Source of the DNA: a virus
DNA: 33,868 nucleotides
Reading direction: 5' to 3' (one strand)
Virus genome (UHGV): UHGV-0293859
Within the stretch, counting starts at the first letter, position 1. Each line of letters opens with the position of its first letter. Under the pieces are notes generated by a model. It saw nothing but the letters and a program-made list of their open reading frames with translations, had not been told where the DNA came from and did not search any database. Below, in pieces: positions 22,264 through 33,603 of this stretch. Made by a program: the position numbers and the translations under genes.

Positions 22264-22786
22264 TTAGGGATGGAGTTTGCCGGCGATGGTTTCCAGCGCG
22301 GTTTTCTCGTCTTCCTGCAGCTGGGCGAGCTGCTCAGGGTCCAGCGTGATTTTCCGTTCCAGCGGCGCCCCGGGAACGCCGGCGACGTCCTGACGGACCC
22401 GGTCTCCGAATTTATCAGGAGCGAAGCGGGCGGCGACTTTCAGCCGGGTTTCAATGGCGAGCTTCTTCGCGGCGACGGAGGCGGAGCCGCATTCCGGGTC
22501 AAGGGCGACTTTCGCGGCTTCGTCGGCCAGCTCCTGGCAGGCGTCAATCATAGCTTCCGACTGCGCTTCCCGCGCGCGTTGAATGAGTTTGGAAAACTCC
22601 GGCTTTGTTTCACGCCAGTTCCAGACCGTCCAGACCTCCGGCATGTGGTCATCGGAGCAGATGGATTTCATGGTTTCACCGTCGGCCAGGCGGGAGGCTA
22701 TCTCGGCAGCCAGTTCCTCTGTGTAGAGGCTCGGCCGCCCCGGTTTTCTTTTGGTGGTAGGTTTCTTTTTCCTGCGGTTCCATCAT
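22264..22786 (-). CDS. terS: Terminase small subunit with apparent frame disruption at a C4 run (22738-22741)
   Basis: Track ORF 22264-22671 carries ...RPSLYTEELAAEIASRLADGETMKSICSDDHMPEVWTVWNW (classic small-terminase HTH motif) but has no canonical start; the ATGATG at 22781-22786 opens a different frame (MMEPQEKETYHQKKTG...); removing one base of the G4/C4 run yields KKTGRPSLYTEEL. Confidence 0.55.
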
Positions 22787-22863
22787 AGGAGATAACGGAT
22801 ATTCAAATCAAGCGCGTTGTTTGTTCTTGATTCGGGGCGCGTGTGTCCCAAACTTTGGTCGAG

Positions 22864-23379
22864 ATGAAACAATGTCCCATCTGCGGAAAGGATGTTCCTC
22901 CGCGCGCGGGCAAGCGCGACAGCGTGTACTGTTCCCGGGCCTGCCTCCAGGCTCACTATGCGGAGGCCTGGGAAACGCTCACATGCCCTGTGTGCGGGAA
23001 CGTATTCCGGGCCCAAAAACTGTGGCGCCGTCAATACTGCTCTGCGGAGTGCGCCAACCGCGCCCAGCGAGGGAGGAAAATCACGTCCGCAGCGTTTTTG
23101 GAGGCCTGCCGTCATCGTGGCGTTTGGGGACCTCGCAAGCATCCGAGGACCGGGAAATTTGAGACGAATTGCCACGCCAAAGTCTGGCGGGTGGAGTCGC
23201 CGGAAGGAGAAGAGGTAACGGCACGCAATCTCAAGCTGTACATGGTCACCCGTTTTGGCGAAACCGAAGGCAAAAAGATTTATAAACTCTTGACCTGCGC
23301 CGCCTCCCGTTTCCGCAAATCTGGGAGAGGCACGGGGGCCGGATGGCGGATTCTGGAAGCTCCATCCGTCCCGGAATAA
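22864..23379 (+). CDS. Zinc-ribbon protein (two CxxC...CxxxC units) with a basic C-terminal domain; hypothetical
   Basis: ATG at 22864 (track ORF starts at GTG 22843); CPICGKD...CSRAC and CPVCGNV...CSAEC. Confidence 0.45.
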   Translation: MKQCPICGKDVPPRAGKRDSVYCSRACLQAHYAEAWETLTCPVCGNVFRAQKLWRRQYCSAECANRAQRGRKITSAAFLEACRHRGVWGPRKHPRTGKFETNCHAKVWRVESPEGEEVTARNLKLYMVTRFGETEGKKIYKLLTCAASRFRKSGRGTGAGWRILEAPSVPE

Positions 23380-23383
23380 AAAA

Positions 23384-23415
23384 GGGGCGGCTTCGAAAAA
23401 AACCGCCCCTTTTTA
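23384..23415. terminator. Rho-independent terminator, bidirectional (A-run / GGGGCGG-loop-CCGCCCC / T-run)
   Basis: AAAAAAGGGGCGGCTTCGAAAAAAACCGCCCCTTTTTAA directly after stop of 22864-23379. Confidence 0.7.
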
Positions 23416-23563
23416 AGGGAAATGGGCGTTGCCGCCCGGATGATCTTGCGATCGTTTTAATCCACAGCCCCGAAGGGCTGAACGTTCAGAAAGAACGCCT
23501 CCTCCTATCATTTTTTGATGGAGGACGACAACGAAAAAAATCTTCTTTTTTCATTTTTTCTCT

Positions 23564-23592
23564 TGCAATACTAAACAATGTTTAGTATATTG
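23564..23592 (+). promoter_or_regulatory. Sigma70-like promoter (-35 TTGCAA 23564-23569, -10 TATATT 23587-23592) with a 19-bp palindromic operator TACTAAACA-A-TGTTTAGTA (23570-23588) filling the spacer
   Basis: Read directly; 9-bp perfect inverted arms; preceded by T-rich UP-like tract. Confidence 0.5.
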
Positions 23593-23661
23593 ACCTTGTT
23601 GACGGGAGGTAAGGGACCGAACGAAGACACAATCCAAAACCAAATCAGAAAGAACAAGACA

Positions 23662-23985
23662 ATGAACGACAACAAAATCATCACCACGGAAGACGGCGAA
23701 GAAATCAATCTGAGCGCGCTTGAACGCGAATTCGGTAGCTATGATTTTGAAGGACACACCTACTATGCTGCTCGCCAAATGGAATTAACCAATCGTCTTT
23801 TTGCCGGATGCTACAACGACGCGGAAGACGGGGACGAATACACCGAGGAATACTCCGCGCCCGGATACGACGAAAACGGAAACCCCGTGGAAATCTTCAT
23901 GACTTTCACGCAGGTGAAAGGTGAAGAGATAGACCCGGAAAACCTTAACTGGTTCCAGGACTCCGACCGCGTTGAAGCCCTCTAA
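23662..23985 (+). CDS. Small highly acidic protein (108 aa from ATG 23662); anti-defence (Acr-like) candidate
   Basis: D/E-rich (EDGEEINLSALEREF...DAEDGDEYTEEYSAPGYDENGNPVE...); first gene of operon under the palindromic operator. Confidence 0.5.
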   Translation: MNDNKIITTEDGEEINLSALEREFGSYDFEGHTYYAARQMELTNRLFAGCYNDAEDGDEYTEEYSAPGYDENGNPVEIFMTFTQVKGEEIDPENLNWFQDSDRVEAL

Positions 23986-24024
23986 CCATGATTCCAGGGC
24001 GGTGCATGCCGCCCTGGCACAGCT

Positions 24025-24234
24025 ATGACTATTCAAGAATTTGTTGATTGGGTGCAGTCCAGATACCATTTGCGATCCAAAACTTCTGCGGTCAAAAAGG
24101 CTGCGCAAATGTTGCGTGTGACGGAAATGGCGGTGTGGCAATGGTTGGGCGGGTCCAGAAAAACGAGTCCGTCGATGGATCTTCTGATGAATTTAATCAT
24201 GGAACGAGGGACGACCAAAAATCTCCCCCGCTGA
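24025..24234 (+). CDS. Cro/YdaS-like helix-turn-helix DNA-binding protein (Aca-like position)
   Basis: 69 aa; SAVKKAAQMLRVTEMAVWQWLGG matches the ..KLAxxLGVSQQAVSQWL.G.. HTH pattern of Cro/YdaS family. Confidence 0.55.
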   Translation: MTIQEFVDWVQSRYHLRSKTSAVKKAAQMLRVTEMAVWQWLGGSRKTSPSMDLLMNLIMERGTTKNLPR

Positions 24235-24241
24235 TTTTCCT

Positions 24242-24979
24242 TCATCCTCCCTGTTCCGCTTCTTCTCTCAATTCCCGGAAAGAAGACCATTCGCAGGTGA
24301 TGACGCCTCCAGCTTCATGCATCCGGCTGACAATGGCGGGACCCAACGCAGGTTCAACCTCTTCCGCCCGGAGGTTGGATATGATGCAAGTGGGTTTCCC
24401 TGACTGGAAGCGGGCATCTACCAGCCGATCGATTGAGTAGGCCGCGAAGTCTGAACGCTTCAGCTCGTGGAACTCGTCAAGAACGAGAAAGTAGGGCCGC
24501 TTGAAACGGGACATCACGCCCTTTTCGCGAGCTTTTTCGTCCTGACGCAGGGCAAGGCAAAAATCATAAGCCTTGCTGTACCGGCAAGACCTTCCAAGGC
24601 GCGTCAGCCCACGGGCAATGGATGAAGCCATGACGGTTTTCCCTGTGCCGCATGGGCCATGCAGCGCTACAATCGCGCCGGGCGTTTTCACCAGCGCGCT
24701 TACGCGACGCCTGGCGGCTTTCCACGGCGTTTCACCGTCCGGCAACGTATCCAGGGCATGAAGGGCCCGGCGCGGGAATCCGGAAGATGACAGAAGGCAG
24801 AACTCGTCCTCCCGGCGCTGCAGTTCTTCCCTCATGGCTGCCTCCAGGGCGGCGCGTTCCTCCGTTTCCGGGTCGTCCGTTACCAAGGCTTCCAGGCGGT
24901 TCAGGATCCCGGCTATTTCCTGGTCGTCGCACAGGGCGGCGGCGGAATGTACATTGTTCATGTTAATGTTAATAGCCAT
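24242..24979 (-). CDS. DnaC/IstB-like AAA+ helicase loader
   Basis: Walker A ALHGPCGTGKT, Walker B FLVLDEF. Confidence 0.8.
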   Translation of the reverse strand: MAININMNNVHSAAALCDDQEIAGILNRLEALVTDDPETEERAALEAAMREELQRREDEFCLLSSSGFPRRALHALDTLPDGETPWKAARRRVSALVKTPGAIVALHGPCGTGKTVMASSIARGLTRLGRSCRYSKAYDFCLALRQDEKAREKGVMSRFKRPYFLVLDEFHELKRSDFAAYSIDRLVDARFQSGKPTCIISNLRAEEVEPALGPAIVSRMHEAGGVITCEWSSFRELREEAEQGG

Positions 24980-25724
24980 AAGTTTTTGATTGTTGAGTAG
25001 TTTGTTGTGGTTCCGGAGTGTTTCTTTTCCGGATGTTGTCGAGGTATCGCAAAGCGAACGCCCTCACAGCGGCCCGCCAATTGGCTACCGGCACCCCCTG
25101 CCTGTCTACCCATCCGGAAGCTTCCCGGTCGTTGAAGAAAAGCAAGGCAATTTGTTTAACATCGGAATGTTGAAGAGGAAGAGCCCCTTTGAAGGCCTCT
25201 GCTGTCAGGAAATCCTCCACCTCTTCGGACGTCTCCGGCAACGGAATGGCGCGTTTTTCTTTTTCATTGGCCCTCGTTAGAGGGACAATGTTTTCTTTCT
25301 TCTCTTCTCTTCTCTGGTCCGCATGTTGTCCGCATGTTGTCCGCTTCCTGTGCGGACGTTTGTCCGCATTATCGTCGTAACCCATTCTTTCCAGGCGTTT
25401 TCTTTCTGCTTCCATTGCGCGGCGTTTCGCGGATTGGCCGTTGTGCCGTCCAAAGTTGGGGAACTCAAGGGAGGCAGCGCGTCCCTTGAGCCAGCCCACC
25501 TGGCGAAGCGCATCGGCGAAACCGTTCAGGTCCGCAATGTCGTCAATGTCTTCTTCCGAGATGTCCATCCCGGAACCTGTGAAAGAGTGAGTGTCCGCCC
25601 AGGACCATACGGAAACAAGACGTCCTACAATGTCGAACCTGGATAAATGAAGAGCGCGGGCCATGCGGCGCACTTCCGGCTTATCGTTCAGTTCTTTTTC
25701 CACTTTGATCCAGTCTCCGGCCAT
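24969..25724 (-). CDS. Phage replisome organiser / replication initiator (O-like), contains iterons
   Basis: N-terminus GDWIKVEKELNDKPEVRRMARALHLSRFDIVGRLVSVWSWAD resembles phage replisome-organiser N-domain; adjacent to DnaC-like gene. Confidence 0.5.
   Translation of the reverse strand: MAGDWIKVEKELNDKPEVRRMARALHLSRFDIVGRLVSVWSWADTHSFTGSGMDISEEDIDDIADLNGFADALRQVGWLKGRAASLEFPNFGRHNGQSAKRRAMEAERKRLERMGYDDNADKRPHRKRTTCGQHADQRREEKKENIVPLTRANEKEKRAIPLPETSEEVEDFLTAEAFKGALPLQHSDVKQIALLFFNDREASGWVDRQGVPVANWRAAVRAFALRYLDNIRKRNTPEPQQTTQQSKTYGY
25317..25370. repeat. Iteron cluster: GTCCGCATGTT x2 tandem, plus GTCCGC, inverted TGCGGAC, and TGTCCGCAT; candidate replication origin inside initiator gene
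   Basis: Read directly at 25317-25370. Confidence 0.5.
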
Positions 25725-32354: not shown

Positions 32355-32437
32355 TGTTCAACGTCCATCTAAATTTGATATGATAAGCATCAAAAATACG
32401 ATAATGCCGCCTATAAGAATTAGAAACACGCCATCAT

Positions 32438-32770
32438 TCATAACTCGTTATTATTTTTAACTTTTGTCCTGGTGATTCTCGTCGTTCCTGACACGATGAT
32501 TTGTCCTCCGTCCGGTTTATAAATCACATACCCATATATTGGAATATCTCCCCTCGATCCCATCCTGAACGCCTCAACACAGTTTGCATATCCCGTTGTA
32601 AAAACAACATCGGGAATGCCGTTCTGTTCAATTTTAAATTCCCATGTTGGTGTCTCTTTTTTTAGGGGTTTTTCCTGATTATCGGCTTGTTTAACAGGTT
32701 GAGGCTCGGAACCCTGATCGCAACCTGAAAGAACAAGCCCGGACAAGACGAGGGCGAACAGAGCTTTCAC
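32438..32770 (-). CDS. Lipoprotein (signal peptide plus lipobox LSGC) in low-GC accessory island; superinfection-exclusion candidate
   Basis: MKALFALVLSGLVLSGC...; AT-rich codon usage unlike the rest of the prophage. Confidence 0.55.
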   Translation of the reverse strand: MKALFALVLSGLVLSGCDQGSEPQPVKQADNQEKPLKKETPTWEFKIEQNGIPDVVFTTGYANCVEAFRMGSRGDIPIYGYVIYKPDGGQIIVSGTTRITRTKVKNNNEL

Positions 32771-33009
32771 TTCTTCACCTCCTTCTGTTCGGTTTTCTTA
32801 AAAGGTGGTTCACCACCTACAGGCAAAAAAACTCGCTTCTTAACAATGCGTTTTGTTTTAGGTGGTTCACCACCTGCGAGCAAAAAAACTACTTGCCCAG
32901 AAACAGATCTTTGTTCTTTTCGTGCAATCAGTTTTATCTGTTCAAATAAGTCAATAGGGAGGTTAATTGTTATTTGCTTTTTCTCGTATTTCTCTGGCGA
33001 TGTTCTCAT
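32767..33009 (-). CDS. Ribbon-helix-helix (Arc/CopG-like) DNA-binding protein with repeat-encoded C-terminal tail
   Basis: KKQITINLPIDLFEQIKLIARKEQRSVSGQVVFLL (beta-alpha-alpha); tail AGGEPPKTK...VGGEPPFKK encoded by the 57-bp-period DNA repeat. Confidence 0.45.
   Translation of the reverse strand: MRTSPEKYEKKQITINLPIDLFEQIKLIARKEQRSVSGQVVFLLAGGEPPKTKRIVKKRVFLPVGGEPPFKKTEQKEVKK
32802..32874. repeat. Two copies of AGGTGGTTCACCACCT-N-GCAAAAAAACT (57-bp period); third related perfect palindrome GGTGGTTAACCACC at 33194-33207
   Basis: Read directly: 32802-32817, 32859-32874, 33194-33207. Confidence 0.6.
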
Positions 33010-33454
33010 AATCTTCGGGTGTAAGAATTACATTTTGAGTTTGTTGAACCAAATAAGCGGTAATGATTTCAGTCATGGTCATATTCAGCTCTTTTGCTCT
33101 CTTTTGAAATTTTCGGAAGAGGACGATTGGTATCCATACTGAAATCTGTTTTTTGTCTATCTTCCGTTGACTTGGCATGTGCTCACCATAATCGGTGGTT
33201 AACCACCAGTCAATACTATTTTTCATTTTTCTACATTTTTTTTCATCATAAATCATACCTGAGCTCTTCACAATTTTTTTCCCTTCATTAGTATTAAGGG
33301 TGTAATGAAGATAATTAGGTATACAGATCTCGACATGGATTCCTAAGTCATCTTTGATGGAGGAACGGGAAAACGAAGAGATTGACGAGTTCATTTCTTT
33401 TTCTCCTCCTTTTGAGTGATGTTCCTCAAGATCCTTTTCGTGGTTCTCCGGCAA
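32963..33454 (-). CDS. Protein with C-terminal RHH domain paralogous to the adjacent RHH (KKQISVWIPIVLFRKFQKRAKE vs KKQITINLPIDLFEQIKLIARKE)
   Basis: 163-aa ORF (ATG at 33394 also plausible); low GC. Confidence 0.4.
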   Translation of the reverse strand: MPENHEKDLEEHHSKGGEKEMNSSISSFSRSSIKDDLGIHVEICIPNYLHYTLNTNEGKKIVKSSGMIYDEKKCRKMKNSIDWWLTTDYGEHMPSQRKIDKKQISVWIPIVLFRKFQKRAKELNMTMTEIITAYLVQQTQNVILTPEDYENIAREIREKANNN

Positions 33455-33603
33455 CCTTCAATAATGCCGAGTCGGAAACAAGTGAACCCGAACAGAACGG
33501 CCAGCAAGAAAAACACAAGCATTACGTTACCTGACATTGCCGTAACCCTTTCTTGCTGAAAATTTAGTTACTAATACGCTAATATTTAAAGCGTTATAAA
33601 TGC

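Follow-up and report, generated by a model that had tools for sequence, protein, structure and literature searches.

We analyzed a stretch of 33,868 nucleotides of viral DNA (UHGV virus genome UHGV-0293859; the whole stretch is referred to below as the window) and found on its plus strand, between positions 23563 and 24234, a small cassette composed of a promoter with a palindrome in its spacer, a gene for a small acidic protein, and a gene for a small basic helix-turn-helix (HTH)-like protein. The host was indicated by the sole match among the GTDB species representatives, a metagenome-assembled genome of Akkermansia muciniphila. The best explanation of the whole, to which we assign a probability of about 0.5, is that the cassette is a horizontally exchanged accessory operon of A. 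muciniphila phages that works like an anti-CRISPR–anti-CRISPR-associated (acr-aca) locus, with an anti-defence role. The parts of this reading differ in strength. An autoregulated, mobile accessory cassette is well supported, and the architectural part, in which the HTH protein would repress the operon via the inverted repeat in the promoter, is strongly supported by sequence comparison. A counter-defence role would be the best inference for the cargo (the genes placed before the regulator), by analogy with known loci, and an anti-CRISPR role specifically is speculative. The elements of the cassette are as follows.

23563-23568, plus strand: −35 hexamer TTGCAA, from the promoter scan
23586-23591, plus strand: −10 hexamer TATATT, from the promoter scan, with a −35/−10 spacer of 17 bp
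23568-23588, unstranded: putative operator palindrome ATACTAAACA-A-TGTTTAGTAT with perfect 10-nt arms, filling the promoter spacer
23599-23661, plus strand: 5' leader TTGACGGGAGGTAAGGGACCGAACGAAGACACAATCC...AGAAAGAACAAGACA, containing the right copy (23645-23655) of an 11-bp repeat
23662-23985, plus strand: acidic cargo gene, 107 amino acids (aa), 27 D/E vs 6 K/R, net charge −21, isoelectric point (pI) 4.05
23994-24017, plus strand: intercistronic GC-rich stem-loop CCAGGGCGG-tgcatg-CCGCCCTGG, an inverted repeat of −20.9 kcal/mol
24025-24234, plus strand: terminal regulator gene, 69-aa basic HTH-like protein, pI 10.6, recognition helix TEMAVWQWLGG

The promoter scan returned two sigma-70-like matches in the region 22700-25000, one of which was the cassette promoter; in shuffled sequences, such matches occurred about once per 2.3 kb. 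The palindrome at 23568-23588 is the sole perfect one with arms of at least 9 nt and a loop of at most 1 nt in the 33.9-kb window, and first-order Markov simulations gave an expectation of 0.09 perfect palindromes with arms of at least 10 nt per window. The initial annotation had described a TTGCAA-17-TATATT promoter (23563-23591) occupied by a 19-bp palindrome (23569-23587). Both were borne out, and the perfect arms of the palindrome extend further, to 10 nt. A search of the window that allowed up to three mismatches detected no second operator copy, and hence no co-regulated operons were found in this way. The acidic and HTH genes have the same orientation and are separated by a 39-nt gap, and the promoter scan found no internal promoter.

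Related cassettes were collected by protein look-ups and by exact matching of the leader's first 20 nt in IMG/VR and metagenomes, which yielded 83 cassettes, 72 of them complete. All 83 share the promoter frame, in which the TTG of the −35 hexamer is invariant and the T-A-n-n-n-T of the −10 hexamer (TATATT, TAACTT or TAAATT) stays in register across 19 distinct promoter variants. At the same 19 positions of this otherwise fixed frame, five palindromic operator versions were observed.

Operator version 1: TACTAAACA-n-TGTTTAGTA
Operator version 2: TACTATAAA-t-TTTATAGTA
Operator version 3: TACTATTCA-n-TGAATAGTA
Operator version 4: (a)ATCATT-g-AATGAT(a)
Operator version 5: TACTGCTCA-a-TGAGCAtTA

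In the 19 distinct promoter variants, the two arms were complementary in 91% of the cells, compared to 32 to 42% when one arm was slid. Changes in both arms occurred at five of the nine pairs, and none of 500 shuffles reached the observed covariation score. This covariation of the arms indicates that selection acts on the dyad symmetry. Such selection is a hallmark of sites that dimeric DNA-binding proteins occupy. The operator is unlikely to be an RNA hairpin, being AT-rich, with a 1-nt loop, and located upstream of the expected transcription start.

The operator classes were then compared with the recognition helices of the regulators in the same cassettes.

Operator TACTAAACA: helix RVTEMAVWQWL(G/R)G, 34/34
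Operator TACTATAAA: W-K-W helix in three variants and four protein architectures, 29/29
Operator ATCATT-g-AATGAT: KEITVWEW, segment KVKEITVWEWMKG, 4
Operator TACTGCTCA: GERTVWQWRNG, segment RVGERTVWQWRNG, 1
Operator TACTATTCA: helix KV(R/E)EIT(I/V)WQWL(R/K)G, 2
Operator TACTATTCA: TEMAVWQW helix in the recombinant L074, 1, the sole exception

Apart from one exception among 72, every operator class thus pairs with a particular W-x-W variant of the recognition helix. Two forms of the 311-aa regulators were seen, and their N-terminal domains show 60 to 88% DNA identity per 100-nt window while the C-terminal helix differs; in each form the C-terminal helix fits the operator located ~1.3 kb upstream. 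The link between operator and helix therefore holds despite ~0.7 kb of extra coding sequence before the HTH domain. The association supports binding of the HTH protein at the operator indirectly and is not a proof of it, given that the cassettes are relatives of one another in which operator and helix are physically linked.

The order of cargo followed by HTH gene was kept in the 72 complete cassettes, and the regulator was last in every one, while the cargo itself varied.

Acidic protein alone: 55 cassettes, including a variant with a 14-aa internal deletion
85-aa protein and acidic protein: 6 cassettes
Pentapeptide-repeat protein and 102-aa protein, acidic gene absent: 4 cassettes
Pentapeptide-repeat protein and acidic protein: 3 cassettes
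85-aa protein, pentapeptide-repeat protein and 102-aa protein: 1 cassette

Every cargo protein is small and acidic, with a pI of 4.0 to 5.1. The pentapeptide-repeat assignment is firm (PF00805, E value of 9e-22). The pentapeptide and acidic proteins were also found fused as one 239-aa open reading frame (ORF) in L038 (706-1425, minus strand) as well as in L044, L057, L060 and L062, a fusion of the Rosetta-stone type that hints at a common target or pathway. In a further variant (L018/L019), which carries a slightly different leader and was counted outside the 83, the acidic protein has a ~95-aa N-terminal extension.

The cassette occurs in two unrelated backbones. One is siphovirus-like, as in the window, with the cassette between terS and a DnaC-like gene. 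The other is Mu-like, and there an orphan N6/N4 DNA methyltransferase gene stands next after the cassette, at the margin of the element; L001, such an element, is a prophage beside host genes and an integrase. The acidic proteins of the two backbones are 86% identical, whereas the regulatory and replication genes of the backbones are unrelated. The covariation of the dyad, the association between operator and helix, the exchange of cargo and the presence in two backbones together bear out the view of the initial annotation that this is an independently regulated accessory cassette. In L014 (6849-10324) and L039, cassettes with the ATCATT-g-AATGAT-type operator adjoin a cluster of sulfotransferase-like, PAPS reductase, CysN-like GTPase and APS kinase genes. 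The cluster may be a module for DNA modification or sulfur activation, such as has been noted in anti-defence hotspots.

The promoter region is bracketed by a direct repeat.

23486-23496 (left copy) and 23645-23655 (right copy), plus strand: 11-bp direct repeat TCAGAAAGAAC, copies 100% identical

The two copies bracket exactly the module of promoter, operator and leader. In L001 and L002 there is a single TCAGAAAGAAC copy (L001, 5960-6000), and the intervening 159 bp with promoter, operator and leader are absent; the module hence behaves as an indel.

We predicted the structure of the acidic protein with AlphaFold2 (AF2). The model, with a predicted local distance difference test (pLDDT) score of 87 and a predicted template modeling (pTM) score of 0.76, shows a beta-rich domain with one helix. 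Foldseek searches against the PDB and BFVD gave nothing annotated, and the best match was an uncharacterized Salinivibrio phage protein (template modeling score of 0.55). Profile comparisons with Pfam, PHROGs, NCBIfam, PADLOC and the PDB likewise returned nothing except a sub-threshold match to FlgE_D2 (E value of 0.007), and neither sequence nor fold similarity to any known anti-CRISPR protein (Acr), Ocr or ArdA was observed. The initial annotation had presented the protein as 108 aa long, strongly acidic and a possible DNA mimic, to be compared by structure prediction with Acr, Ocr and ArdA. The acidity stands, the length is corrected to 107 aa, and the model, although confident, resembles none of these mimics. 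The strongly negative charge fits a DNA mimic, and the label derives from this charge alone; the predicted beta-rich fold is unlike that of Ocr or ArdA and does not have an elongated shape resembling B-DNA.

A profile search of 1.84 billion representatives at an E value of 1e-3 or less placed the protein in a family of 167 clusters at 50% identity. The members are small, with a pI of ~4.1 to 4.5, and share the conserved core TNRvFpGwwGDA-eGEeY...W-F..vKGeE. None of 67 diverse members matched PHROGs or NCBIfam, and the family profile gave nothing meaningful against the PDB. The sole relative among 50,697 phage records was gp31 of Paenibacillus phage BN12, annotated as "hypothetical protein", and no relative was detected among 72,556 plasmids with the probes used. 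BN12 gp31 lies in a moron-rich accessory region, with the lysis genes on one side and the integrase on the other, and is encoded on the strand of the repressor and integrase. In this region (L011, 4992-7322), gp31 stands beside a transposase and a TnpX-like recombinase, and three TTAAGTGT direct repeats overlap its putative promoter. Distant family members (P0062, P0076, P0094, P0126, P0122, P0157, P0165 and P0092) have an N-terminal ribbon-helix-helix (RHH)-like extension, whose profile matched the antitoxin Rv0298 (E value of 3e-5), CopG (0.04) and omega (0.04) in the PDB; in other members, the N-terminal extensions are 50 to 280 aa long, unrelated, mostly acidic and without a Pfam match. 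In a podovirus-like contig with a P22-type portal (L089, 5001-6905), a member with 35% identity heads a cluster of seven small ORFs that opposes the packaging and replication modules. This cluster has the promoter TTGCAA-17-TATACT, and its last ORF is XRE/Cro-like (PDB 3mlf, E value of 0.004; 434 Cro, 0.2).

The 69-aa protein had been called a Cro/YdaS-like HTH protein. Its length was correct, and the similarity is real but lies below the Pfam threshold. The matches to YdaS_toxin (E value of 0.03), P22_Cro (0.047) and HTH_23 (0.044) were all sub-threshold, and the gathering threshold was not reached for either PF15943 YdaS_toxin (14.6 vs 30 bits) or PF14549 P22_Cro (13.9 vs 30.2). The sub-threshold YdaS and P22_Cro matches recur in 8 to 10 of 12 family members, with best E values of 0.001 to 0.005, and HTH_23 recurs in 11 of 12; the tandem-domain paralogues (L035, 311 aa; L023, 434 aa) pass the Pfam cutoffs for HTH_17, HTH_23 and HTH_3. 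When the family profile was compared with all PDB chains at E values up to 10, the only sequence match was N15 Cro (0.97), aligned over helix 2, turn and helix 3, and no Aca1, Aca2, Aca10 or AcrIIA1 chain was returned. The regulator occurs alone (62 to 80 aa), as the C-terminal domain of 160- to 191-aa proteins, as one of four tandem paralogous domains (311 to 314 aa), and as the N-terminal domain of 434-aa proteins with more HTH repeats. From its sequence and position we infer that it acts as an Aca-like autorepressor, a dimer of which would bind the palindrome at 23568-23588.

The 5' leader is nearly invariant among cassettes that differ in operator, cargo and HTH, and its conservation exceeds that of every coding part. 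It also lies 5' of the pentapeptide-repeat or 85-aa gene where these stand first. This conservation is partly a matter of ascertainment, yet the loci from the protein search carry it too. An RNA element in the leader was rejected, since no structure beyond chance was predicted (z of −0.09) and no Rfam family matched. RNA-level operator binding has been shown for Aca2 and Aca1, and the leader could be an RNA site for the HTH protein, a translation enhancer or a second DNA site.

The intercistronic hairpin was found 3' of the acidic gene in all variants. The loops differ, some of the stem changes are compensatory, and in three lineages (L010, L015 and L017) the hairpin is followed by a T-rich tail. 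Judging by these features, it is probably an attenuator or leaky terminator that would lower HTH expression relative to the cargo.

The mechanism that we propose can be outlined as follows. The sigma-70-type promoter would drive the small acidic cargo and, as the last gene, the small basic HTH protein. A dimer of the latter would bind the 9-1-9 palindrome in the −35/−10 spacer, where the half-site centers lie 10 bp apart and would thus, at one helical turn, face the same side of the helix, and would occlude RNA polymerase. The cargo would be made first in a burst before the operon shuts itself off, and attenuation of read-through by the intercistronic hairpin would let the repressor accumulate more slowly than the cargo. 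The 107-aa acidic protein may be a stoichiometric inhibitor that occupies a positively charged surface of a host nucleic-acid-targeting protein. The likeliest target would be a defence nuclease or effector, e.g., of a restriction-modification (RM), BREX or type I-C/II-C CRISPR-Cas system. The scheme takes its directly observed elements from the anatomy of the locus, the selection on the dyad, the operator-helix association, the cargo exchange, the backbone mobility and the absence of a known homologue, and adds to them by inference the binding of the HTH protein to the operator, repression, attenuation and the entire function of the cargo.

Inhibition of nucleic-acid-targeting systems is the most plausible function of the cargo because of the logic of the locus, the cargo exchange and the acidity of all cargo proteins, and also because of the company of the pentapeptide-repeat protein, the orphan methyltransferase of the Mu-like element and the RHH fusions. 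All genes of the window are phage genes. Type I-C and/or II-C CRISPR-Cas is present in most A. muciniphila isolates (PMC9241678), and BREX/RM loci have been described in this species (PMC10799925); plausible targets therefore exist. In every tested Aca family, an inverted repeat lies within the core promoter and the promoter is repressed (PMC9410906). This mode of regulation was demonstrated for Aca1-3, and for Aca4-10 it was inferred or tested (PMC9410906, PMC6765145). Many candidate anti-defence genes that lack annotation are present in Aca-regulated operons, and an Aca of the RHH type is known (PMC13551039).

Several points weigh against the anti-defence reading. The HTH assignment of the 69-aa protein is below threshold, and its AF2 model (pLDDT of 79, three helices) draws residues 19-40 as one continuous helix in which the turn is not resolved. 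The cassettes share ancestry and have operator and HTH gene in physical linkage, which confounds the operator-helix association, and the recombinant L074 breaks the pairing. Furthermore, the acidic-HTH pair in L001 and L002 stands without promoter and operator. Guilt by association with an Aca-like regulator generates hypotheses and is not proof, and the Aca-type association is explicitly a prioritization tool (PMC13551039). An antirepressor module or a set of early host-takeover genes would fit the same layout.

Under the last of these readings, the cargo would inhibit housekeeping machinery such as gyrase/topoisomerase, RecBCD/AddAB, RNA polymerase or replication, with the same regulation. 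The pentapeptide-repeat protein in the cassette, even fused with the acidic protein, is consistent with this, Qnr and MfpA being pentapeptide-repeat proteins and classical gyrase-interacting DNA mimics. So are the early-looking small-gene cluster headed by a distant member in the podovirus-like contig and the failure to find anti-defence homology for the cassette proteins. However, the cassette is optional, exchangeable and carried on temperate elements, which is more typical of accessory counter-defence loci, and tight autorepression is a described hallmark of acr operons (PMC9410906). We consider host takeover unlikely, with the reservation that its boundary with anti-defence is blurred, RecBCD inhibitors often being counted as anti-defence. 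An antirepressor module similar to immI, in which the acidic protein binds and disables the lysogeny repressor of the phage itself or of a competitor in the manner of P22 arc-ant, would explain a small inhibitor with a small repressor, an operator overlapping the promoter, and an orientation opposed to the lytic operons of a temperate phage; the RHH-inhibitor fusions of distant members also resemble Arc- and antitoxin-type regulators. It is at odds with the occurrence of an 86%-identical acidic protein in two backbones whose regulatory and replication genes are unrelated, with relatives in a podovirus-like contig that has no lysogeny genes in the 10-kb stretch examined, and with cassettes that contain other cargo in place of the acidic gene. 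Pfam and PHROG scans revealed no similarity to Ant/KilAC or Rha antirepressors, and the antirepressor reading appears quite improbable.

We give still less credence to a moron expressed in lysogeny for the benefit of the host, for example by excluding superinfecting phages or as a small defence system or toxin-antitoxin-like pair. Such a gene set could be expected to be insulated by terminators, with its own promoter opposite to the lytic modules, as is the case here, and the BN12 homologue does lie in the moron-rich lysis-integrase region on the repressor/integrase strand. However, the PADLOC defence models matched no cassette protein except for generic HTH matches in the long regulators, no toxin-like, membrane or enzymatic domain was detected, and there is no gene for a partner toxin, the HTH gene converging on the DnaC-like gene. 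Finally, a perfect palindrome with 10-nt arms somewhere in such a window has a chance of ~0.09 and promoter-like matches arise at ~1 per 2.3 kb in shuffles, so that a fortuitous palindrome beside unrelated small ORFs, with no functional unit, can be imagined. The fixed position in the spacer, the compensated dyad changes across ~80 loci and the conserved gene order already refute this by comparison, and we attach almost no weight to it. The anti-defence operon remains our preferred reading.

Upstream of the promoter, the window contains three hairpins.

23379-23414, unstranded: bidirectional intrinsic terminator-like hairpin AAAAAGGGGCGGCTT-cgaaaa-AAACCGCCCCTTTTT, 15-nt arms, 93% complementary
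23424-23437, minus strand: second short GC hairpin GGGCGGCAACGCCC, terminator-like site with a counterpart in L001
23466-23481, unstranded: hairpin CAGCCC-cgaa-GGGCTG, ~80 nt 5' of the −35 hexamer

The first is the bidirectional terminator that had been reported to precede the operon. It forms the left boundary of the cassette, has A and T runs at its flanks and a terminator-like match on the minus strand, and has a counterpart 5' of the cassette in the unrelated Mu-like element L001. The third recurs in every type of cassette, L001 among them, and shows compensatory changes (AACCC/GGGTT in L003 and CACGCC/GGCGTG in L017); together with the two terminator-like hairpins before it, it may act as a cassette insulator.

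The surroundings of the cassette were annotated as follows.

Left flanking module, minus strand: terS (PF20901, E value of 6e-22) and terL
22843-23379, plus strand: HNH/zinc-ribbon-like ORF, 178 aa, two CxxC pairs, weak HNH-endonuclease match to phrog_1271 (E value of 2e-11)
Right flanking module, minus strand: DnaC-like loader (phrog_50, E value of 7e-27), replication initiator (phrog_2509, E value of 4e-47) and DNA methyltransferase

The cassette had been described as oriented against both flanking modules. This holds for the minus-strand terS/terL genes and for the DnaC-like side, with the qualification that the plus-strand HNH-like gene intervenes on the left. The latter is opposite to the neighboring terS/terL genes and is conserved in related phages (171 aa in L018). 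The HTH and DnaC-like genes are convergent, with 7 nt between their stop codons and no terminator (24234-24242). Early transcription of the minus strand would continue across the cassette in antisense as far as the hairpins at 23437-23379, so that transcriptional interference is possible. The low-GC right end of the window (32400-33500) contains two RHH-like ORFs, 32767-33009 and the C-terminus of 32963-33454, the latter matching the Arc-like repressor phrog_582 (E value of 7e-4). This region is probably the main early regulatory region of the phage, separate from the cassette HTH.

Two alternative gene calls in the cassette were rejected. A 135-aa version of the acidic ORF would start at the ATG at 23578, which is the operator center and lies upstream of the expected transcription start; furthermore, this ATG is changed to TTG in most relatives, and the conserved N-terminus is MNDNK.... 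The second is an antisense 70-aa ORF (24033-24245, minus strand), which has an ATGA overlap with the stop codon of the DnaC-like gene. In several public metagenome records it is annotated in place of the HTH gene, and it was called as a gene in L006, L007 and L009. Its frame is interrupted by stops in L001, L003, L015, L017 and L018, and the 69-aa HTH protein is conserved both there and where no DnaC-like gene follows. Differences at the HTH gene, counted by plus-strand codon position (517/307/730), were rarest at the second position, which favors the plus frame. The conserved plus-strand protein, the interrupted antisense frame and the low rate of second-position substitutions indicate that the HTH ORF is a real gene, and the antisense call is likely a mis-annotation that masks the regulator in protein databases, where only six HTH clusters were found.

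A. muciniphila is a candidate for a next-generation probiotic and has few genetic and phage tools, and we know of no anti-defence protein described from it, nor of any Acr from the Verrucomicrobiota. Our literature search returned nothing specific on anti-defence loci of Akkermansia phages and no paper describing the present locus. If the cargo proteins are counter-defence factors, they would offer a direct experimental entry to the conflict between A. muciniphila and its phages and would give a widespread family of "dark matter" proteins a function. A more far-reaching, tentative proposal, which we hold to be doubtful as a whole, is that the acidic protein founds an unannotated family of immunity inhibitors, that this is the first acr-aca-type locus in the Verrucomicrobiota, that at least four cargo families act against the type I-C/II-C CRISPR-Cas, RM or BREX systems of this gut bacterium of therapeutic relevance, and that the five operator/helix pairs are orthogonal. 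In that case the inhibitor family would comprise at least 167 clusters at 50% identity, would be almost absent from cultured phages, and would include RHH-fused members. Whatever the cargo does, the set of regulators and operators illustrates repressor-operator co-evolution in a compact natural form, and its five operators and W-x-W helix variants might supply orthogonal repressor parts. Guilt-by-association mining of more cargo genes could use the HTH gene and the conserved leader, which are good anchors.

Comparison with described systems showed partial likeness to several of them. The very acidic protein, with a net charge of −21 in 107 aa, is similar in this respect to the DNA mimics Ocr (T7 gp0.3) and ArdA, and the acidic gene beside, and sometimes fused with, a pentapeptide-repeat protein gene recalls the pentapeptide-repeat DNA mimics Qnr and MfpA. 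As in P22 immI (arc-ant under Pant) and in the autoregulation of type II antitoxins, the operator of a small repressor overlaps the promoter of its own operon, which also encodes a protein inhibitor (a putative one in the cassette). Unlike those systems, the cassette has its regulator last, no Ant/KilAC homology, no toxin partner and exchangeable cargo; Pfam and PADLOC scans found no toxin domain in any cassette protein, and the cassette ends at the HTH gene, which does not agree with a type II toxin-antitoxin system. The distant members of the acidic family with an N-terminal RHH domain resemble the self-regulating Acr fusions (AcrIIA1; AcrIIA13-15, PMC10901769) and the RHH regulator Aca14 (PMC13551039), with a DNA-binding autoregulator and a putative inhibitor in a single chain; the likeness derives from the profile match to RHH antitoxins (E value of 3e-5). 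In the window, by contrast, the two functions would belong to different genes, and the regulator is HTH-like rather than RHH.

The closest comparison is with the acr-aca operons (Aca1-Aca13, including Aca1 of Pseudomonas phage JBD30 and Aca2 of Pectobacterium phage ZF40; PMC9410906, PMC6765145, PMC8633003). In both, a mobile element carries an operon in which one or more small, fast-evolving, exchangeable genes precede a small HTH gene; both have a consensus-like promoter with an inverted repeat inside its core, occur in unrelated backbones and encode small acidic cargo. The cassette differs from them in that its HTH protein has no detectable sequence relation to the Aca proteins with solved structures and that no cargo protein is related to any known Acr. 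In addition, a single operator lies exactly in the spacer, as opposed to the two inverted repeats of several Aca families, and a conserved hairpin stands between cargo and regulator. The canonical acr-aca architecture claimed at the outset therefore stands with respect to the promoter inverted repeat and the co-oriented small gene upstream of the regulator, but not with respect to Aca and Acr homology. The locus is best termed not an anti-CRISPR locus but a candidate new family of Aca-like regulators together with candidate new families of anti-defence cargo.

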